Below the pieces are notes generated by a model. That model saw nothing but the letters and a program-made list of their open reading frames with translations. It was not told the origin of the DNA and made no database searches. A stretch of DNA of 64,000 bases from Acidobacteriota bacterium (GTDB lineage: Bacteria; Acidobacteriota; UBA890; WLXD01): assembly GCA_965205505.1 (NCBI GenBank), contig CBDBHB010000009.1, forward strand, positions 1,888,001 to 1,952,000, in the 5' to 3' direction. Positions 7,937-42,584 of the stretch are shown here, one piece after another. Positions within the stretch are counted from its first letter, which is position 1, and every line of letters starts with the position of its first letter. The position numbers and the translations under genes are program-made.

Positions 7937-8042
7937 CGGAGTCCACTTCAAAGTGCTAGTCCCGCGCAGACTCCCGCTTCCAGCAGACGAACTGGCGCCC
8001 AACTGCGTCTGCAATTATCACCTCACAAGGAGCTTACAGTCC

Positions 8043-8147
8043 ATGGCGAAGAAGAAGACTGTTGGCGTGCGTCCTCTGCACGACCGGGTTTTGCTACGTC
8101 GTTTGGACGCCGTCGATGAGGCTCGCGGCGGCATGGGCGGCTTCTAA
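8043..8147 (+). pseudogene. groES: groES 5' end fused to a groEL-like 3' end (deleted groESL operon)
   Basis: AAGGAG RBS; MAKKKTVGVRPLHDRVLLRR...RGG (GroES N-terminus) followed directly by MGGF* (GroEL-type GGM tail). Confidence 0.8.
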
Positions 8148-8376
8148 CCTTTGCTCCAGTCCGACGAGCACGGGACACACCGGGCTCGGGGTGTACCAGG
8201 TTCGCTCCGGGCTCGATGTGGGTCGGCCAACCGCACCGACCGGCGGAAGGTCTCAGGATGGGCGGCGAGAAAAATTGCCGCCCTGGAACGCGCTTGCTAC
8301 GATTGGGTAATGGTCAGCGACACTCCGTTGCGGCCGTACCCTCCCTAGATACCGACCTCGCCAGGAGTATGATCCG

Positions 8377-8922
8377 ATGCGGACGACCACCAGCTTGCTA
8401 ATCGGCGCGGCAATGTTCACGTCGGCTGTTTTCTCCACCCCGCAGTCTACGGGCACCCGCATCGTCTTCATCGATGGAGACTCGGTGCTGACTGGATCAG
8501 AGATTGGACGCGTTGCCCGCGAGCGGCTCGAGGTTGAAGCTGCGAGGTGGCAGGAGAATCTCAACGCGCAGGCGACGGAGCTCGAAGCGTTGCAGCGCCA
8601 GCGCCAAGATCAAGCGCTGACCCTCAACGAGGCTGCGTTGGCGCGGCTCAACCAGGACATTGAAGAAAAGCAGGTGCTGGCCCAGCGCACCAACGACGAT
8701 GCCCGTCGTGAGCTCGAGCGCATGGAGCAGCAGATCACGCTCGATGTCAACGAGCAGCTTGGACCACTGGTCGAACAGTTCGCCGCCGACAACGGCTACG
8801 ACGTGATCTTCGACTCTTCACGGGCCCAGGGCGTGCTCTACTTCGCCAACTCGACGATCGTAACCACCGAGTTCTTGGCGCTGGTCAACTCGAGCGTAGG
8901 CGCCGATTCGTCGCAGGACTGA
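8377..8922 (+). CDS. skp: OmpH/Skp periplasmic chaperone
   Basis: Signal peptide, IVFID, long coiled coil, GYDVIFD. Confidence 0.8.
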   Translation: MRTTTSLLIGAAMFTSAVFSTPQSTGTRIVFIDGDSVLTGSEIGRVARERLEVEAARWQENLNAQATELEALQRQRQDQALTLNEAALARLNQDIEEKQVLAQRTNDDARRELERMEQQITLDVNEQLGPLVEQFAADNGYDVIFDSSRAQGVLYFANSTIVTTEFLALVNSSVGADSSQD

Positions 8923-9009
8923 CAGATCTCCAACAACCGCGCGTTCGGGGTGCTGCACGGGCCACGGGAGGAGTTGTGGGGCGCGAGCCTCACAGACGGA
9001 GTGCGGGAT

Positions 9010-9380
9010 TGACCCGCGAGGCAGGGGAACCGCTGTCGAGATGATCGGCAGAGGAAAGTCGGGACTCCACAGGGCGGCGCGCTGGGTAACCCCCAGCGGG
9101 GGAAACCCCGGGAAAGTGCCACAGAGAACAGACCGCCTGCGGCCTTCGGGCTGTCGGTAAGGGTGAAACGGTGGGGTAAGAGCCCACCAGTGTCGGGGGC
9201 GACCCCGGCAGCTAGGTAAACCCCGCGTGGAGCAAGGCCAAATAGGGAAGCGATGGGCTGGCCCGGCCCGGCTTCCGGGTAGGCTGCACGAGGCGTCGGG
9301 AGACCGGCGTCCCAGATTCATGGTTCCCAGCCTGGCTTCGGCCGGGTGAACAGAATCCCGCTTACTCGCCTCGCGGGTCA
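9010..9380 (+). ncRNA. rnpB: RNase P RNA, bacterial type A
   Basis: GAGGAAAGTCGGG...GAAAGTGCCACAGA...GGGTGAAACGGTGGGGTAAGAGCCCACC...GGTAAACCCC...GAGCAAG...AACAGAATCCCGCTTA; P1 TGACCCGCGAGGC/GCCTCGCGGGTCA; compensatory change in P4. Confidence 0.96.
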
Positions 9381-9401
9381 GCTCCGTAATCGTCAGGCGT
9401 G

Positions 9402-9444
9402 CCACACTTGCAGCACGGCCTGTTGCAGGCTGTTAGAGGCCACT
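9402..9444. repeat. Remnant type B end plus type A end of the CTAG repeat, interrupted by the IS
   Basis: CCACACTTGCAGCACGGCCTG resembles the B terminus; CTGTTAGAGGCCACT resembles the A terminus CTGTTACAGGCCACTAG. Confidence 0.7.
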
Positions 9445-9469
9445 TCTAAGAGAAGGCCTAGTTCGGTCA

Positions 9470-9645
9470 AGGGCAATGTGGTGGCCAGCGAAGAATCGAT
9501 CTGCACGCCATGCTCCTATTCGCACTCTGGTGGACGAGGATTCAGGTCGTCCGGTGCATTCTGGGGTCCGTCCCGATTCGAGGCGCTGCAATCTAGCTGC
9601 CGAGCTCGAAGCTCGTAGTGACCTTCGCAGTCGCCCGGACCGGGC
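9470..9645 (-). ncRNA. Putative bridge/seekRNA of the IS110 element (boundaries approximate)
   Basis: Stem CTGCGA/TGCAG encloses hairpin CGAGC-TTCGA-GCTCG with loop strands AGGTCACTA and GCAGCTAG matching the insertion site; second hairpin GGACGA...TCGTCC followed by ATAGGAG, similar to IS end TTAGAAG. Confidence 0.65.
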
Positions 9646-9704
9646 GGTCAGATCGATAACCGTTGGGTCGCGTCGCCCTACCGACCTCCTGGTTGCGGGT
9701 TAGT

Positions 9705-10748
9705 TCATGCTGCTGAAACCTCTACAGGTGCGCGCAACGGTTCGTACTCGTCTCCACTCAGCCACAGTCGGTGCAGCACAACGGCGAGCTTACGGGCGAC
9801 AGCAACTGCTGCCTTTTTGTTGCCATGAGGACCACCGCGTCCGGCCAGCTTGAGCCCCCAGCGTCTGAGCTCAGTATCGGGCCCGAAGGGGCCCAGGATG
9901 TAATGCGCCGAGCCCACCAACAGGCGTCGGAGCATTTTGTCGCCCGCCTTGGTTATTCGTAGCGCAGGGTCCTTGTCCCCCGACTGCCGTTTCTTCGGTC
10001 TCAGTCCCAGGTACGGGCCCACGGCTCTGGAGGTATTGAACCGTTCCGGCTCCTCGAGCGTCAGCACATACGCCAGTGCGGTCAGAGCTCCGACCCCGGC
10101 CACTTGCTGGAGCTGCTGTGTCTCCGGGTATCGCCCCTGGCACAGCTGCACGATCTGACGCTCGTATTGCTGGATGTTGCCCGTCAGCATGGCGATCGTT
10201 TCAAGCACCGGCTCGAGCGCTCCCTTGAGCCGCTCCGGTATGTGCTCTGGCGCGGTGCGCGCGAACGCCGGCGTCGAGCACCTGGGAATACGACAACCGG
10301 CCGACTTGACCGCACCACGCACATGGCTCACCAACTGCGTGCGGCTCTTTACCAGAGCATCTCGGCTCCGAATCACGGCTAGATCCGCTCGCGCTTGTCT
10401 GCCTCGATGCTGCACCGTCTTAAGCAGCTTTGGGTCCATTCTGCCCACTCGTGCCAGGTGCTCGGCATCCAACCGGTCGGTCCGTGCTCGCCATAGATCA
10501 GCTTCAGCCGCCTCGGGTTAGCCACCAGCACCTCATGACCCAGTTGCTTCAACTGCTCACTCATCCACGGCGAGTGCGTTCCAACCTCCAGCACTAACTC
10601 GAGCGGGCTCCTCGCACCCGAACCGCCTCGCCAGCCCCTCCGGGCTCGTCCTCACCCGCCCTTCCTCCATCACCCTGCCCTTACTGTCGAGCACGCACAT
10701 ACGGCTGTACCGGTCGCTTACGTCCAGTCCAATCGTTACACTCCTCAT
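9705..10748 (-). pseudogene. IS110 transposase (DEDD RuvC-like plus Tnp20 domain) with two frameshifts, near 10597 and 10487
   Basis: IGLDVS / LEVGTHS / TDRLDAEHLA / GVGALTA / YLGLRP..RQSG...ITKAG / AVARKLAV are spread over three frames. Confidence 0.92.
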
Positions 10749-10845
10749 CGGCCAACCTCCTTGGGCTTCGAGCCCGTTACGTTTGAAGAAACGTTTGCAG
10801 AGCCGTCAGGCTACTGCGTTCAGGAGGTTGGCCTTCTCATCTCAT

Positions 10846-11292
10846 CTAGAAGGGGATGTCGTCATCGTTGATGGGGGCGTCGCCACCACCACCGCTACCG
10901 ACAGCGTCACCGTCAGCGCCGCCGCCCGCCGGGCCGGGGTCACCGTAGTCGCCGCCTCCACCACTAGCGGCGCGGCCGAGCAGCTGGATGTTATCGGCGA
11001 CGACCTCCGTCGTGTAGCGCGTGTTGCCGTCGCGATCCTCCCACTGGCGTGTCTGCAGACGACCCTCGATGTACAGCTGCTTCCCCTTGTTGGCGTACTG
11101 GTTCACGATTTCGGCCGTGCGTGCCCAAGCGACGCACCGGTGCCACTCCGTCTGCTCCTGCTGGTTGCCGTCGCGATCCTTGTACCGGCGGCTCGTGGCA
11201 AGCGAGAAGTTGGCCACGGCGGTGCCGCTTGCCGTGTAGCGCAGCTCGGGGTCTCTACCCACGTTTCCCAACAGGATGACCTTGTTAACCAT
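10846..11292 (-). CDS. ssb: Single-stranded DNA-binding protein
   Basis: MVNKVILLGNVGRDPE...TEWHR...IEGRLQTRQW...DDDIPF. Confidence 0.97.
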   Translation of the reverse strand: MVNKVILLGNVGRDPELRYTASGTAVANFSLATSRRYKDRDGNQQEQTEWHRCVAWARTAEIVNQYANKGKQLYIEGRLQTRQWEDRDGNTRYTTEVVADNIQLLGRAASGGGGDYGDPGPAGGGADGDAVGSGGGGDAPINDDDIPF

Positions 11293-11444
11293 ATCGCCCC
11301 CTAAAAGTACCCGCTGTTAGGCGCCACGCGATGATGAGAAGGCCATGCGGCGCCGGAATTCCGAGCACGAAAGTGTCGACTCTGGCCGGGCTCCGCGCAA
11401 GTCGCAGCCGCGCGGTGTGCGTCGCTGACAAACCAAACTCCCGA

Positions 11445-11942
11445 TCAGCGCTTCTGCAGGATCACAGAAATCCCGGTATGGCCAATCCACCACTCAGTCG
11501 CGTTGCCCTGCAACGTGACCCTGACTTGCAGGTCGACGTTGCCTGGCGAGAACTCGTAGGGGACGGTCATGCTGGCCATCACCCACCCGTCGTCGTCGGT
11601 GGCGGTCTCGTTGCCGGAGCAGAAGGCATCGTCCGTGTTGTCACTCTGGCCGATCGTACTGCCGTTGACAATGATGTCGATTGAGACCCAGTCCGCCACA
11701 TCGCCCTCGACGCTGCATTCTGCACTGAATGTGATGACCCCGTGTCCGCTCCTGCCGACATTGAACTGCAGCGTGTCGCCCACGGCGTTGCCGTTGAGAT
11801 CGGTACCAAGATCGATCAGCGCGTCGGCGTTACCAAGCTGGTTGTCCAGGGAGGTAGCGCCGTAGATGCGAGTCGCTCAGCCCGCCGAGGCGAAGCACAG
11901 TACCAGGGTCAGCGACAGGCTGACCACCCCGAGTCTCTTCAT
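11445..11942 (-). pseudogene. Secreted beta-rich protein, paralog of 12158-12655, with in-frame TGA at codon 22
   Basis: MKRLGVVSLSLTLVLCFASAG*ATRIYGAT...AECSV...FCSGN...DGWVMASMT...WWIG...LQKR; same 498-nt length as the paralog. Confidence 0.8.
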
Positions 11943-12157
11943 TAGGAGACCTCCTGCGCGTCGAGTTTCAGCAAACCGGTCCCAGTCTAGGCAACAGCAC
12001 AGTAAGCCGGCCCGCCACACCGCGAAACGAGAGTGACCGGACGGTAGTCCGTCACATCGATCGTCGCAAGGAGTTGGCTGGCCGTGTGCCGGCCGTGTCG
12101 GGCTCCAGCGGCGAATTGCACCGGGGCCGCGCGGTGAATCTCAGGCCGCCGCCCGCG

Positions 12158-12655
12158 TCAACGTTTCTGGACGAGGACCGTAAGCGCCAGGTCGCCGATC
12201 CACCACCCTGCGGCCCCCCCGGAGGGCGTCACCTGGATCTGCAGGTCGTAGTTGCCGGCAGCGAGCTCCACCGGGGCGGTCATGCTGGCCATCACCCACC
12301 CGTCGTTGAACCCGGCAAAGCCATTGCCCGAGCAGAACGTATCCTGATCGCCCCGGCTGGGCCTCAGAGCGTCGCCGTTTACGAGCAACTCGATGCTCAC
12401 CCATTGTTGCTCGGTGCCGTCGACGGCGCATTCGGCGGTGAAGGTGATGATGACCGCGCCGTCTTCCTTCAGATCGAAGGCGAGGGTGTTACCAATATCG
12501 TTGTCACCGATGTCCGCGCCCAAGTCCAGGAGGCTCTGGACGGTCCCCATCTGATTACCGGGGTTCGTGGCGCCGAAGATTCGCACTGCCCATGCGGCCG
12601 ACGCCATCGTCAGCACTAGGGCCATGGCCAGAGCCAGGGTTGGCAATCGCTTCAT
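12158..12655 (-). CDS. Secreted hypothetical beta-rich protein with two Cys
   Basis: Signal peptide MKRLPTLALAMALVLTMASAAWA; strong similarity to the tandem paralog. Confidence 0.75.
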   Translation of the reverse strand: MKRLPTLALAMALVLTMASAAWAVRIFGATNPGNQMGTVQSLLDLGADIGDNDIGNTLAFDLKEDGAVIITFTAECAVDGTEQQWVSIELLVNGDALRPSRGDQDTFCSGNGFAGFNDGWVMASMTAPVELAAGNYDLQIQVTPSGGAAGWWIGDLALTVLVQKR

Positions 12656-19436: not shown

Positions 19437-19987
19437 AGTGGCCTGTAACAGATGATCGTTGCATATCGCAGATGGGATTTGCGGGTGAGATCAAGGCGCG
19501 GCGAGGATGTCGATGCTAGCAGGCCGTGATGGAAGTGTGGTGGGTCTGGCAAGTGGGACTCACGGGCTAGGGCAAGGATCGACGACGAGGCGATGCTGGA
19601 GCCATCGTCGAGGAGGAGAGACGCCGCCATCGCCCGTGACTCCCACTTGCCCTACGGGTTACGCCGCCAAGGGCGCGTCTCCGGCGTTGCCGCTCCTAGA
19701 CGATGCGCACGGGCATCGCCGGCGACGCGGCGCCTTGGATCTGCGCCCTTGGCGGCGTAACCAGACCCATCACACTTCCACCACGGCCTGCTGGGGCATC
19801 GTCGACGAGCCGCAACGCCGATATCGCCCACAACTGCCCATCTGTCCGGAGGATGGCGGCGAAATGGGCCCGTCTGCGGCGTTGCTTCTCCTCGGAAGCT
19901 GGGCCAACATCGTCTCGTCGTAGCGCCTGGCATCCGGACCCATTCCGCCACCACGATATGCAACGATCATCTGTTACAGGCCACTAG
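19435..19987. mobile_element. MITE-like element type A (~278 bp) carrying nested type B
   Basis: 32-bp TIR AGTGGCCTGTAACAGATGATCGTTGCATATCG / CGATATGCAACGATCATCTGTTACAGGCCACT; no transposase. Confidence 0.88.
19516..19794. mobile_element. MITE-like element type B (279 bp), nested in type A
   Basis: TIR CTAGCAGGCCGTGATGGAAGTGTGGTGGGTCTGG / CCAGACCCATCACACTTCCACCACGGCCTGCTGG. Confidence 0.88.
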
Positions 19988-39702: not shown

Positions 39703-42309
39703 GTGCGTGTAGCCCGGGAAGCGCTGGTGAAACTCGGTCCGACCCTTTATCGAGTGTTGACCCTCGTCACCGTCTCGCTGGCGCTCGCCAGCTCGGCCAT
39801 GGCTGCCGGGCAGGACCGCCGGGAACAAGAACGGCGTCGACGACAGATTCCGGTGCGCCTAGTTCGCCCCGGCGAGTCTGGAAGCGCGGTGCGTCTGGGC
39901 CCGCGGCGCAGCATTCCGGTACGCATGGTTCAACCCGGCGAGACGGGGCGAGTGCGGTTGCCGCCCGCAGCGCCCGTGCCGCTAGCGAATGCTCCGATTG
40001 CAAGCCCCGGACCCATTGCCGCAGGCGTGCTCCAGCCTGCTGTCGCTAACGGACCCCTTCCGGTGAGCGCAGATCGTGCGTCGCTAGCGGAGAGCGGAGC
40101 AGCGCCGCCCTCGTTGGTCGAAGACCTCGCGGATTTGATGGCGTCAGGCGGGGATACCGGTGCTGTCGCAGGAGTGCCCTTCGATCCGCCTATCGATGGC
40201 AAACGCGCCGCGGCGACATGGACGGACACGCCCCCCGTTCTCGATGGCCGGATCGACGACGCAGCGTGGCTGTTGGCCGACGTCGTCAGCGATTTCGTCC
40301 AGAAGGAGCCCGTCGCCGGATCGACGCCGACAAAGCGTACCGAAGCGCGCGTCTTGTACGACGAGGACACGCTCTACATTGGCTGGATCAACCACGACGA
40401 TGAGCCCGACAAGATCGTCGCCACGGAGATGCGGCGCGACAGATACCCTGCGGCGGACGATTGGGCGGTGGTCTACTTGGACACGTTTCACGACCATCGC
40501 AACGCCTTCGGCTTCGTAGTCAACGCGCTCGGCACCAAGTTCGACTTCACGCTGCGTGACGAGAGCCAGTTCAACATGAACTGGGACGAGAACTGGGAAG
40601 CCGCGGCGAGCATCACCGAACGCGGCTGGGAAGCCGAGCTCGCCATCCCGTTCTCGGCCCTCCGGTATGCCACCGGAAGCAACATCTGGGGCATCGAGTT
40701 CGAGCGCGAGGTCATACGCACCAAGGAGCGCATGACCTGGAACAACACGAGCCGCGACTACGACTGGCGCGCCGTCTCGCAATACGGCAATCTCGTCGGG
40801 CTGCAGAACCTGGCGCTCACCGATCGGTTCCGCCTCAAGCCCTTCGTGACCGGCGGCTACGACTCCTTCCAGCAGCGTGACGATCCGCTGTCTGATGGCA
40901 GGGGCGAAATCGGCATCGAGGTCTTCAAGGTACAGCTGACCCCCAGCCTCACCGCCAACCTGACGGTGAACACCGACTTCGCCGAGGTCGAGGCCGACAC
41001 CCAGCAGGTGAACCTGACCCGTTTCTCGCTGTTCTTTCCCGAGCAGCGCGAGTTCTTTCTCGAGGCCGCCAACAGCTTCACCTTCGGCACTCTGCCACGG
41101 CGCAGCTCGGGCGACAGCGAGGGAGGTGGCTTCCAGCGACAGCCGCCGCTGGCACTGCTGTTCTTCTCACGTCGTATCGGTCTGGGGCCAGAGGGGCAGC
41201 CGGCCCCCATTCGCTTCGGGGGCAAGCTGACGGGAAAGCTCGGCAGCGGCAACGTCGGCTTCGTGAACGTGCAGACAGGCGACTCGCAGTTCGGTGTCGG
41301 TCAGAACTTCGCGGCCTTTCGCTGGAAACAGGATGTCTTTGAGCGATCGAGCGTCGGCGCGCTGGTCACCAACGTTCAGGGGCCCGATGGCCAATACAAT
41401 CGCGTTTTCGGGGTCGACGCCGATTTCATATTTTTCGACCACCTGTTTCTGTCGGGGTTCGTGGCCGGTGGCCAGGACAACGACCTCGACGGCACTTCCT
41501 GGGTTGGTCAGCTCAGCGCCGGGTGGGATACCGAATCGTGGGGGCTAGGCGGCGATGTCACATACGTGGCCGACGACTTCGACAGCGACCTCGGCTTCGT
41601 TCTCCGGCGCGACATCGTGCGCTACAGCTACCAGGGACGCTGGTCGACGCGCCCGAGCTGGCCGCTGTTGCGGCGCGTGTCGCTGAGCCCCTCGTTGGAA
41701 CGCATCACCGACACCAGCGGGCGACTGGTTTCGCGGCTTGGCAGCCTGAGCACGCGGCTGGATCTGGAGTCTGGTGACATCATCCGTTTTCGCGTCAACC
41801 GCAACTACGAGCTGTTGGATGTCGCGTTCCCCATCGACGACGACGTCTCCATCCCGATCGGCGACTACTCCTGGACCGACGGCGAGGTCACTCTGCGCTC
41901 CGCGGCCCGCCGGGCGCTGAGCGGCAACCTGACCCTCAGCCTGGGCGAGTTCTACGACGGCACACGCTTCGGGGTTGGCGGCGGGCCGCGGTTCCGATTC
42001 AGCGATCGCTTCGCGCTGAACCCCGAGTACAGCTTCAACCGTATCCAACTGCCCGGTGGGAGCTTCGACACCCACCTCGTGCGGCTACGCGCCAACCTGT
42101 CGTTCTCGGAGCGAGTGCTGCTTGACTCGCTGCTGCAGCACAGCAGCGTAACCGATCAGCTCTCGGCGTTCGTGCGGTTGCGCTACATCTACCGTACCGG
42201 CGACGACTTCTACCTGGTGTACCGCCAGTCGACCGCGTTCAGCGGCTTGTTCGACCGCTTGGACGACGGCTCGCTCACCGCCAAGATGACGTTCACGTTG
42301 CAGCGTTAG
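39703..42309 (+). CDS. CBM9-like/DUF5916 putative outer-membrane protein, copy 1
   Basis: PVLDGRIDD..W, LDTFHDHRNAF, NTDFAEVEAD.QQVNLTRFSLFFPEQREFFLE, FFSRRIGL. Confidence 0.85.
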   Translation: MRVAREALVKLGPTLYRVLTLVTVSLALASSAMAAGQDRREQERRRRQIPVRLVRPGESGSAVRLGPRRSIPVRMVQPGETGRVRLPPAAPVPLANAPIASPGPIAAGVLQPAVANGPLPVSADRASLAESGAAPPSLVEDLADLMASGGDTGAVAGVPFDPPIDGKRAAATWTDTPPVLDGRIDDAAWLLADVVSDFVQKEPVAGSTPTKRTEARVLYDEDTLYIGWINHDDEPDKIVATEMRRDRYPAADDWAVVYLDTFHDHRNAFGFVVNALGTKFDFTLRDESQFNMNWDENWEAAASITERGWEAELAIPFSALRYATGSNIWGIEFEREVIRTKERMTWNNTSRDYDWRAVSQYGNLVGLQNLALTDRFRLKPFVTGGYDSFQQRDDPLSDGRGEIGIEVFKVQLTPSLTANLTVNTDFAEVEADTQQVNLTRFSLFFPEQREFFLEAANSFTFGTLPRRSSGDSEGGGFQRQPPLALLFFSRRIGLGPEGQPAPIRFGGKLTGKLGSGNVGFVNVQTGDSQFGVGQNFAAFRWKQDVFERSSVGALVTNVQGPDGQYNRVFGVDADFIFFDHLFLSGFVAGGQDNDLDGTSWVGQLSAGWDTESWGLGGDVTYVADDFDSDLGFVLRRDIVRYSYQGRWSTRPSWPLLRRVSLSPSLERITDTSGRLVSRLGSLSTRLDLESGDIIRFRVNRNYELLDVAFPIDDDVSIPIGDYSWTDGEVTLRSAARRALSGNLTLSLGEFYDGTRFGVGGGPRFRFSDRFALNPEYSFNRIQLPGGSFDTHLVRLRANLSFSERVLLDSLLQHSSVTDQLSAFVRLRYIYRTGDDFYLVYRQSTAFSGLFDRLDDGSLTAKMTFTLQR

Positions 42310-42584
42310 TGTCCTGTAGCAGAGGTTCGTTGCATATTGCTGGATCGAGATGGGGGCAAGCTCAAGGCGCGATGAGGATGGCGATGCGGCGGCCATCGTC
42401 GACGAATCGCAACGCTGAGATTGCCCCCATATCGACCCAGCCCTCCGGGTGGCCGCGGGACTGGCCACCTCCGGCGTCGGCCCTCCTCTGCGATACGCTC
42501 AGCATCGCCGTCGTCGAGCCTCCTTGGATTCGACTCAGTCGCGCGCGCCACAATATGCAACGAACCTCTGCTACAGGACACTAG
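42306..42584. mobile_element. MITE-like element type D (279 bp)
   Basis: TIR TAGTGTCCTGTAGCAGAGGTTCGTTGCATATTG / CAATATGCAACGAACCTCTGCTACAGGACACTA; sits on the DUF5916 TAG. Confidence 0.9.

Follow-up and report, generated by a model that had tools for sequence, protein, structure and literature searches.

An IS1111-type element with a predicted guide RNA directed at the tips of IS630-like MITEs in an acidobacterial genome

Why an IS110-family element (IS) should recur throughout one Acidobacteriota genome at nearly the same short sequence is the question raised by the stretch of DNA analysed here (the window, 64,000 nucleotides). A BLAST search of the region against the genome returns about 30 copies that are 98 to 100% identical, and 31 left ends and 27 full copies can be counted in total. 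RNA-guided targeting of repeats by the IS110/IS1111 family is already established, and a preliminary description of the window had proposed that an RNA loop of this element is programmed against the ends of a CTAG repeat family. We consider it very probable (roughly 0.88) that this is an IS1111-type IS110 element whose predicted seekRNA, or bridge RNA, guides insertion in one orientation at the tips of IS630-like MITEs. The element, its ends and its neighbours are arranged as follows.

9445-10845, minus strand: IS110-family (IS1111-type) IS, delimited by a BLAST comparison with the genome and by its junctions; 1401 bp in the window copy, 1404 bp in intact copies
9705-10748, minus strand: transposase gene, broken in the window copy (open reading frames 10748-10557, 10594-10379 and 10472-9705)
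9430-9444, plus strand: left target half CTGTTAGAGGCCACT, resembling a solo MITE tip, with the part read by the predicted guide, AGGCCACT, at 9437-9444
10846-10849, plus strand: right target half CTAG
9443-9444: left copy of the CT core (AG in transposase orientation); CT stands at both junctions, a single CT in empty sites
10846-10847: right copy of the CT core, from junction comparison
10830-10838, minus strand: 5' subterminal inverted repeat GAGAAGGCC, which follows the 7-nt extension ATGAGAT; conserved in the family
9450-9458, minus strand: 3' subterminal inverted repeat GGCCUUCUC, with a 5-nt extension after it (TTAGA in this copy but ATAGA in the majority), from alignments of copies and relatives
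9465-9470, minus strand: TTGACC, possibly the -35 box of a promoter that would become whole only at a circle junction
9014-9380, plus strand: RNase P RNA gene (Rfam RF00010, 287.6 bits), left neighbour of the IS
10846-11292, minus strand: ssb-like gene, in the same orientation as the transposase gene
19437-19987, plus strand: unoccupied dimeric target MITE, from repeat comparison

The element carries the characters by which the IS110 family and its IS1111 subgroup are recognized. There is no long target duplication, and a 2-nt core is common to the target and the element ends; AG stands at both ends of most of the relatives listed. The 9-bp pair of subterminal repeats (GAGAAGGCC and GGCCTTCTC) agrees with the 7-17 bp subterminal inverted repeats and short terminal extensions attributed to the IS1111 subgroup by Durrant et al. 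2024 (PMC11208160). Siddiquee et al. 2024 (PMC11187229) give a longer non-coding region downstream of the transposase gene, and a transposase of 330-350 amino acids with a GL-P----S(t)G motif, as further marks of the subgroup; here 260 nt are non-coding downstream (9704-9445) and 97 nt upstream (10845-10749), and the intact 348-residue translation contains GLRPKKRQSG. This translation matches Pfam PF01548 (E=1.1e-17) and PF02371 (E=5.6e-17), reaches 206.9 bits with NCBIfam NF033542 ('IS110 family RNA-guided transposase'; cut-off 140), and has the ISCro4 and IS621 transposases as relatives in the PDB, that of IS621 being a distant one (8wt6 and others, E=4.5e-8 over residues 188-339). Residues D9, E54, D92 and D95 are invariant across 24 homologs and are assumed to be catalytic. 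Compared with intact copies, the window copy is frameshifted, with four bases missing near 10483 and one extra base at 10597, and could therefore move only with protein supplied by the intact copies, which make up 10 of the 27.

The junctions of the copies define the insertion site sharply. Thirty of the 31 left flanks end in AGGCCACT and one ends in AGGTCACT, whereas right flanks begin with CTAG at 25 of 27 junctions and diverge beyond it. Because AGG(C/T)CACT is present at 31 of 31 left junctions and CTAG at 25 of 27 right junctions, this recurrence is far beyond chance. Removal of the IS and of one CT yields AGGCCACTAG, which is the tip of a 274-bp IS630-like MITE together with its TA duplication. 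That repeat has terminal inverted repeats and no coding capacity; 24 pairs of its termini lie 250-299 bp apart, mostly at 274-275 bp, and its flanks read cTA...TAg, which places the TA duplication within CTAG. Table 1 of PMC2577343 gives CTAG as the target of IS630, with a 2-bp duplication. A resident 1190-bp DDE_3 (PF13358) element has the tips CTAGTGTCCTGAGT. At the window site the joined flanks are CTGTTAGAGGCCACTAG, identical at 16 of 17 positions to CTGTTACAGGCCACTAG at 19971-19987, the tip of the dimeric MITE. The preliminary description had placed the CT core at 9443-44/10846-47 and had noted this same match, and both observations are confirmed. The repeat family that it named after CTAG is real, but its identity is corrected to an IS630-like MITE, of which CTAG is the target-site remnant. 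It had also proposed that insertion of other copies at unrelated sites should count against it, and the other copies prove to use the same site.

We find it very improbable that the common flank reflects hitch-hiking, in which the copies would have been carried along as the MITE spread, or exchanged between MITE copies through homologous recombination or gene conversion, instead of entering each site by an independent guided insertion. A recognizable MITE arm is present in 18 of the 31 left flanks and one pair of right flanks is identical, as such a history might leave them. Furthermore, the haplotypes of the 27 copies are mosaic and all different, which points to recombination among copies or to mixing in the assembly, and either process could account for part of the spread among mosaic copies. 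However, among the 27 right flanks 26 are different sequences that begin immediately after CTAG, the left flanks derive from different MITE subfamilies, and 13 of the 31 sites, including the window site, have the short tip motif only and no MITE arm. Hitch-hiking would also leave unexplained why, in unrelated relatives, the loops described below match their own, different flanks.

Guided insertion, the reading that we prefer, draws on the non-coding region downstream of the transposase gene, which would encode a seekRNA or bridge RNA with two internal loops. Its predicted modules are as follows.

9582-9635, minus strand: predicted target-binding loop module, from folding and the family alignment, with outer stem 9635-9627 paired with 9589-9582 and hairpin 9615-9601
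9616-9626, minus strand: 5' guide strand GAAGGUCACUA
9590-9600, minus strand: 3' guide strand GCAGCUAGAUU, of which only CUAG matches the variable flank side
9513-9567, minus strand: predicted donor-binding loop module, with inner stem GCAC (9557-9554) paired with GUGC (9525-9522)

In the outer stem of the target-binding module, GGCG(A)CUGC (9635-9627) is paired with GCAGCGCC (9589-9582), and the family alignment shows this stem to be 98.1% paired, with compensatory changes in five of the nine pairs. The minimum free energy fold of the whole 260-nt non-coding region is no better than those of shuffled sequences (z=-1.29), and it is only the local modules that are supported, through comparison with relatives. 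RNAalifold applied to a MAFFT alignment recovered just the two outer stems, as the hairpins vary in length, and an Rfam scan of 8000-12500 at E<=1 returned RNase P RNA only and no family for an IS RNA. Contigs from two RNA-library runs (X16 and X17) extend across 9430-10665 and other parts, and a third run (X18) covers only about 150 nt; DNA is possible in these libraries, and the contigs cannot prove transcription, strand or ends. Both the RNA and its ends are presented here as predictions.

Both guide strands are invariant in all 27 full copies. Within the 5' strand, AGGUCACUA would pair with T-AG-TGGCCT, which is the core plus the MITE tip on the top strand of the target in transposase orientation, by eight Watson-Crick pairs and one U-G wobble. 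The 3' strand would pair through CUAG only, a match of 4 nt in this element that corresponds to the last MITE base, the TA duplication and the following G. Within the predicted donor-binding loop, AUAGGAG (9519-9513) is the 3' strand and corresponds to ATAGA, the 3' end of the IS, followed by AG; in 60 of 64 elements a strand of the form AU(A/G)G(N)AG is the same as the element's 3' end and core taken together. A candidate 5' donor strand, ACCCCAG (9567-9561), shows an association with IS base 4 (Fisher p=1.6e-4) but forms only four of seven pairs in this element. The preliminary description had recognized a stem and internal loop after the transposase gene, with one strand (9616-9624) able to pair with the target through a single U-G wobble and the other (9593-9600) matching the other flank at CTAG only, as well as a second loop in which AUAGGAG resembles the IS end. 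All of this is borne out, and the two target strands extend to 9626-9616 and 9600-9590. The IS end that it reported, TTAGA, holds for the window copy but not for most copies, which end in ATAGA, and the donor-loop match is therefore better than had been thought. Specifically, the base at window position 9449 is A in 20 and T in 7 of the 27 aligned full copies, and a manual count from the listing of 31 left ends gives 22 A and 9 T.

A test of these loops is offered by relatives that insert elsewhere. A single-protein search of genome contigs found one relative only, and more were recovered by an alignment-based metagenome scan. We examined 80 metagenome loci and excluded from the counts those whose loop or end was not parsed by regular expressions; locus L002 was analysed by eye and supports covariation, L056 was misparsed in one listing, and L005-L007 (31-35% identity) were left out. 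Metagenomic relatives that are 50-71% identical keep the scaffold, and their loop strands have changed and match their own flanks. Another relative, in G011, has the loops CGGACUCUA and CCGAGUAGA, and its flanks read ...GAGTAG before the IS and AGAGTCCG after it. Across metagenome relatives, an exact run of at least 7 between the 5' loop strand and the reverse complement of the element's own 3' flank is present in 32 of 54 dereplicated elements (the run is shorter in the other 22), compared with 55 of 2862 mismatched pairings. Likewise, the 3' strand matches the element's own 5' flank over a run of at least 6 in 27 of 39 cases, compared with 30 of 1482 mismatched pairings. If G-U pairs are allowed, at least seven of eight positions are paired in 36 of 52 dereplicated elements and in 183 of 2652 cross pairings. 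Covariation of homologous loops with their own targets, which the preliminary description had named as a test, is therefore observed, and its suggestion that the IS parasitises repeat ends by means of an RNA loop gains support from the flanks of the copies as well as from guide-flank covariation.

It could be argued that the protein, or DNA structure at the MITE inverted repeat, chooses the site and that loop complementarity is a coincidence or by-product, since the target lies within an inverted repeat able to form hairpins and the match of the target and donor loops to flanks and ends, as expected of the IS110 family, is established here by sequence and covariation alone. We judge this even less probable than hitch-hiking. 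Across 52-54 dereplicated elements whose targets are unrelated, the guide changes together with the flank while the protein and the RNA scaffold are conserved, and published experiments (PMC11187229, PMC11208160) show RNA-programmed targeting in the IS110 family. It is scarcely credible that AGGCCACT is part of the IS itself, with misplaced boundaries and no specific target: BLAST identity between copies often begins at window position 9430, within the flank, but the genome has 109 IS-free AGGCCACTAG sites, many of which are the paired tips of 274-bp MITEs, the sequence upstream of the 8-mer varies between copies, and the tip is abundant (56-119 matches) in three of four same-genus genomes, none with a transposase match at E<=1e-30.

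In those four genomes, a search for the 17-mer tip with one mismatch allowed gave 115-119 matches in two, 56 in the third and 3 in the fourth. Since the tip is present in genomes that have no transposase match at this threshold, the target MITE predates the IS. One mobile element here lives at the tips of another, and the repeat that it targets is, in this lineage, older and more widespread than the IS itself.

Guided insertion by the predicted RNA also makes sense of which tips are occupied. Empty sites number 109 for AGGCCACTAG, 2 for AGGTCACTAG and 87 for the A-type sequence AGGACACTAG. Occupancy by tip type is 30 of 139 for C, 1 of 3 for T, 0 of 87 for A (Fisher p=1.1e-7) and 0 of 6 for G. 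Avoidance of A-type tips fits what should be expected if a guide U pairs with G or A and not with T, and the overall pattern fits RNA-DNA pairing rules that include the U-G wobble. These approximately 230 near-identical candidate sites in one genome, varying at one guide position, amount to a natural specificity experiment. On AGGNCACTAG targets, the guide model predicts that C and T should be accepted and A and G rejected, and that bases beyond CTAG should matter little. T directly after CTAG is rarer at occupied sites (6 of 25) than at empty sites (60 of 109; p=0.007), a difference that the guide model does not predict.

In the mechanism we propose, a circle junction (...ATAGA-AG-ATGAG...) would recombine with the target at the common AG/CT core, giving insertion in one orientation at MITE tips. 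The guide U would accept C- and T-type tips and exclude those of A-type, and the flanking DNA on the other side should hardly matter. In 60 of 65 relatives, TTGAC stands at a distance of 18-20 nt from the 3' end of the IS, where it may belong to a promoter formed at the circle junction. No sigma-70-like promoter was detected when the linear element was scanned for one. We advance one extension of this mechanism tentatively, and with more doubt than conviction. The IS might be specialised as a hyperparasite on the tips of IS630-type MITEs, and its target guide might in effect have a single arm: 9 nt would read the tip, and the other arm would read only the CTAG regenerated by every IS630-type insertion, so that any tip would be a site irrespective of the neighbouring sequence. 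The single wobble position (the guide U) would select MITE subfamilies and spare A-type tips, including those of the resident autonomous IS630-like element, and broken copies might persist and spread since ends and RNA would suffice with protein from intact copies.

The element is a clear natural example of the mechanism described in 2024 and leaves the known mechanism unchanged. Its closest parallel in habit may be IS4321/IS5075, for which Partridge and Hall reportedly described, in 2003, specificity of position and orientation. Those elements are, like the present IS, of IS1111 type with subterminal inverted repeats, and use one position and orientation in the terminal repeat of another mobile element. 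Here, in contrast, the victim is a 274-bp IS630-like MITE rather than a Tn3-family transposon, the site consists of the last tip bases plus the TA duplication with one guide arm reading almost nothing beyond CTAG, and the host, with 31 copies, is a high-GC bacterium from the environment.

Among elements with experimentally shown seekRNAs, the IS1111-family members ISEc11, ISPa11, ISKpn4 and ISPst6 (PMC11187229) share with our element the non-coding region downstream of the transposase gene, a 330-350 amino acid transposase with GL-P----S(t)G, and a top-strand match located 5' of the bottom-strand match, both overlapping in the target. They differ in that our target is a MITE tip rather than a REP or attC, and in that our RNA is a prediction from sequence. 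The IS621 bridge RNA has two internal loops of two strands each that read opposite target and donor strands around a CT core, and its promoter is reconstituted at the circle junction (PMC11208160). The present element resembles it in its two predicted two-stranded loops around a common CT core and, to judge by the possible -35 box, perhaps in its promoter. Unlike our element, IS621 encodes its RNA ahead of the gene, at the left end, has the reverse order of guide strands, possesses subterminal repeats of only 2-3 bp and targets REPs. ISPpu9 of Pseudomonas putida, an IS110-family element inserted in extragenic repeats and accompanied, downstream of its transposase, by a small RNA gene (PMC12288879), likewise has a repeat target and a downstream RNA region, which is predicted in our case, whereas its target is a REP and its host a pseudomonad.

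A non-exhaustive literature search found no paper in which an IS110/IS1111 element is directed at the tips of MITEs or of IS630, and the supplementary bridge-RNA and target-logo tables of PMC11208160 and PMC11187229 may include relatives. The clade itself is large and uniform: 7996 of the 8000 candidate proteins scored reach E<=1e-40, and its parsed members among the 80 metagenome loci have nearly the same ends and RNA scaffold and different guides. It should help in working out how IS1111-type bridge RNAs choose their targets, a subject that has received less study than targeting by IS621.

The preliminary description had further supposed that repeat tips provide safe sites at gene ends, and this holds in part. 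Only 10 of 27 occupied sites terminate a reading frame with 100 or more open codons, compared with 39 of 109 empty sites and 252 of 1173 of all CTAG sampled. The window copy sits between the RNase P RNA gene and the stop codon of the ssb-like gene, which we named by reading its translation by eye (OB-fold SSB-like, with DDDIPF before the stop). That stop is the minus-strand TAG at 10846-10848, inside the target CTAG, and the insertion has left it intact.

The insertion sequence (IS) lies between an RNase P RNA gene and an ssb-like gene, and the same genome carries repeats and a larger element whose tips resemble its insertion site:

9014-9380, RNase P RNA gene, left neighbour of the IS (Rfam RF00010, 287.6 bits)
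9445-10845, minus strand, insertion sequence, 1401 bp
right neighbour of the IS, minus strand, ssb-like gene
19437-19987 and 42308-42584, copies of the target repeat, read as a MITE
G000:C9:263590-264779 in the source genome (locus L113, 844-2033) and locus L114, 1190-bp DDE_3 element, open frame of 390 aa

On sequence grounds, we assign a probability of roughly 0.88 to this IS being of an already known kind, namely the IS1111 subgroup of the IS110 family. Every family and subgroup trait that was tested is present, and those of the subgroup comprise 9-bp subterminal repeats, a long non-coding region downstream of the transposase gene, a protein of 348 aa and the motif GL-P----SG. This transposase, when intact, matches Pfam PF01548 and PF02371 and scores 206.9 bits against NCBIfam NF033542 (‘IS110 family RNA-guided transposase’, cut-off 140), and its only relatives by sequence in the PDB are the transposases of ISCro4 (E=4.6e-9) and IS621 (E=4.5e-8). 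Within the family, IS4321/IS5075 target the terminal repeat of another mobile element. Repeats are also known targets of IS621 (PMC11208160), ISPa11 (PMC11187229) and ISPpu9 (PMC12288879). What sets the present IS apart is that its victim is a MITE/IS630 tip, that it almost lacks a second guide arm and that a single base discriminates between MITE subfamilies.

A BLAST search of the genome (5.98 Mb in 9 contigs, with the window at G000:C9:1888001-1952000) revealed approximately 30 copies of 98-100% identity, and anchoring on both ends yielded 31 left ends, 27 right ends and 27 full copies, 10 of which encode the intact protein. The same 4-base deletion breaks the transposase frame in 12 of the 27, including the window copy (near 10483), which has a further extra base (near 10597) and whose transposase gene is split into three ORFs. 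Five full copies have a 1-base deletion elsewhere. Across 14 informative columns, the 27 copies represent 27 different mosaic combinations of alleles, which suggests that copies have recombined or undergone gene conversion, or that they were mixed in assembly or polishing.

The 260-nt minus-strand region past the stop codon comprises, in order, GGCG(A)CUGC, GAAGGUCACUA, the hairpin CGAGCU-UCG-AGCUCG, GCAGCUAGAUU and GCAGCGCC. In the target loop of this predicted seekRNA, AGGUCACUA can pair with the top-strand target T-AG-TGGCCT (transposase orientation) by eight Watson-Crick pairs and one U-G wobble, and the match of the second guide strand is limited to CUAG. Both guide strands are invariant in all 27 copies. 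The match to the top strand lies 5′ of that to the bottom strand, which is the order that two earlier studies (PMC11187229; PMC11208160) give for IS1111-type seekRNAs, the order in IS110-type elements being reversed. Across the 30 sequences of the family alignment of the RNA region (A2), pairing reaches 98.1% in the outer stem of the target loop, where 5 of the 9 base pairs have compensatory changes, and the whole 17-pair structure is better than all 500 shuffles and all slid controls.

The preliminary description proved accurate in its positions, which were CT at 9443-44 and 10846-47, loop strands at 9616-9624 and 9593-9600, and AUAGGAG at 9513-9519. Its restored site, CTGTTAGAGGCCACTAG, is likewise recovered, with a 16/17 match to 19971-19987. 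Among all copies, 30 left flanks (window orientation) end in AGGCCACT and one in AGGTCACT, whereas right flanks start with CTAG in 25 of 27 cases (one has CTAA and another a short duplication) and are distinct over 60 nt in 26 of 27. Thus, removal of the IS and one CT restores AGGCCACTAG. Sites without an IS comprise 109 instances of AGGCCACTAG, 2 of AGGTCACTAG, 87 of AGGACACTAG and 6 of AGGGCACTAG.

Occupancy differs among tip variants that vary at a single guide position, at 30/139 for C-type, 1/3 for T-type, 0/87 for A-type and 0/6 for G-type sites (C and T vs A, Fisher p=1.1e-7), and A-type and C-type sites overlap in upstream context (CTGTTAC, CTGACTC). We infer the cause to be a guide U, which accepts G or A as its partner and rejects T. 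The guide model does not explain why T just after CTAG is rarer at occupied sites (6/25) than at empty AGGCCACTAG sites (60/109; p=0.007). The target TAG terminates an open frame of 100 codons or more at 10/27 occupied sites, 39/109 empty sites and 252/1173 sampled CTAG sequences, and these counts are upper bounds because long frames can be open by chance in a genome of 64% G+C. Where this TAG ends a gene, the transposase and that upstream gene point the same way, as at ssb, whose stop (10846-10848) falls within the CTAG of the site and survives the insertion.

Agreement between guides and flanks extends to more distant elements. A genome of the same order (G011) contains an interrupted relative of 63-68% identity. 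It shares the scaffold, its loops are CGGACUCUA and CCGAGUAGA, and its flanks, ...GGAGAGTAG|IS|AGAGTCCGCGG, are exactly what these loops predict. This closest genome relative of the transposase (G011:C1:3908161-3911885; loci L010 and L004) is split by an insert of ~2.7 kb between residues 150 and 146. The element at locus L002 (43% identical) has loops CACGCGCUU and AUCUAAAGA, which fit its flanks ...GCCTAAAG|IS|AGCGTGTGG with one G-T wobble.

Of the 8000 candidates scored in a protein search, 7996 are homologs at E<=1e-40, and an alignment of 24 homologs led to the retrieval of 80 metagenome loci (50-71% identity). Where locatable, the ends of these relatives are near-constant (ATG(A/G)GATGAGAAGGCC ... 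GCCTTCTCAT(A/G)GA, with AG on both sides in most), and the scaffold GG(Y)GACUGCG - guide - hairpin - guide - AGAU(U/G)GCAGC is kept while the guides vary. In the dereplicated set, 32/54 elements have a 5′ guide with an exact match of 7 or longer to the reverse complement of the 3′ flank of the same element, vs 55/2862 cross pairings. The 3′ guide shares at least 6 with its own 5′ flank in 27/39 vs 30/1482, and with G-U allowed at least 7 of 8 positions pair in 36/52 own vs 183/2652 cross pairings, all of these counts covering elements whose loop and end were captured by the pattern search.

The insertion site is the tip of a MITE. We identified 24 pairs of inverted termini 250-299 bp apart, mostly 274-275 bp, and other pairs ~548 bp apart, as dimers would give; with up to 3 mismatches to a 15-mer allowed, the genome has 299 tips. 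The termini read AGTGGCCTGTAACAGATGATCGTTGC... with flanks cTA...TAg, and the tips fall into at least two subfamilies, AGGCCACTAG and AGGACACTAG. The resident 1190-bp element, with its DDE_3 (PF13358) open frame and tips CTAGTGTCCTGAGT...ACTCAGGACACTAG, is a likely autonomous relative of the MITEs, and its A-type tips are unused by the IS. Given these termini, flanks and tips, and the 2-bp duplication and CTAG target motif listed for IS630 (PMC2577343, Table 1), we read the repeat as an IS630-family MITE and the target CTAG as the last C of the tip, the TA duplication and the G of the old target. A recognizable MITE arm is present at 18 of 31 occupied sites, and the remainder, including the window site, have the short tip motif only. 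Of four genomes of the same genus that were searched, none has a transposase match at E<=1e-30. The 17-mer tip (1 mismatch allowed) occurs 115-119 times in two of them and 56 times in the third; the fourth, whose assembly is fragmented, has 3. Hence the repeat predates the IS and is more widely distributed, and the IS encountered sites that already existed.

In the donor loop, the strand past the conserved GUGC is AU(A/G)G(N)AG. In 60 of 64 elements this strand is identical to the final five IS bases followed by the AG core; another two (the window IS and locus L035) have G for A, which would form a G-T wobble, and two others differ at the flank. The likeness of this loop to the IS end, initially put at 5/7, is better than that figure, since 20 of 27 aligned full copies end in ATAGA and the window copy in TTAGA. 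The sequence A(C/U)C(C/U)CA before the GCAC stem is a candidate for the partner strand and shows an association with base 4 at the 5′ end of the IS (24/7 vs 2/12, Fisher p=1.6e-4, kinship ignored). Its putative role as 5′ donor strand is unproven because it pairs at only 4 of 7 positions in the window IS.

A scan of the linear element for sigma-70-like promoters gave none. In 60 of 65 relatives, TTGAC precedes the IS 3′ end by 18-20 nt (9465-9470 in the window), and GAAGAT, which a circle junction would build from the two final IS bases, the core and the two initial IS bases, would follow it at the right spacing. IS110 circles rebuild a promoter across the core, according to PMC11208160. One idea is that TTGAC might serve as the -35 box of a promoter that becomes complete only when the ends are joined in a circle, with GAAGAT resembling a -10 box. 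Two metatranscriptome runs contain contigs of an IS allele without frameshifts at a word depth of ~17-18, which is no proof of transcription, strand or ends; an RNase P RNA contig from the same run has a depth of 118.

Related elements on soil metagenome contigs (L036, L038, L040, L041, L043, L045, L047, L048, L052, L053, L055, L058, L064, L077 and L092) share one site type, TTCTC(C/G)GAAG|IS|AGTTCGC, with guides GCGAACUU and CUC(C/G)GAAG, and appear to target another repeated sequence of their hosts. In the window, the 64 nt separating the RNase P RNA gene from the IS (9381-9444) contain GGCCTGTTGCAGG and then CTGTTAGAGGCCACT, which resemble a pair of degenerate MITE tips set back to back, with the MITE body missing.
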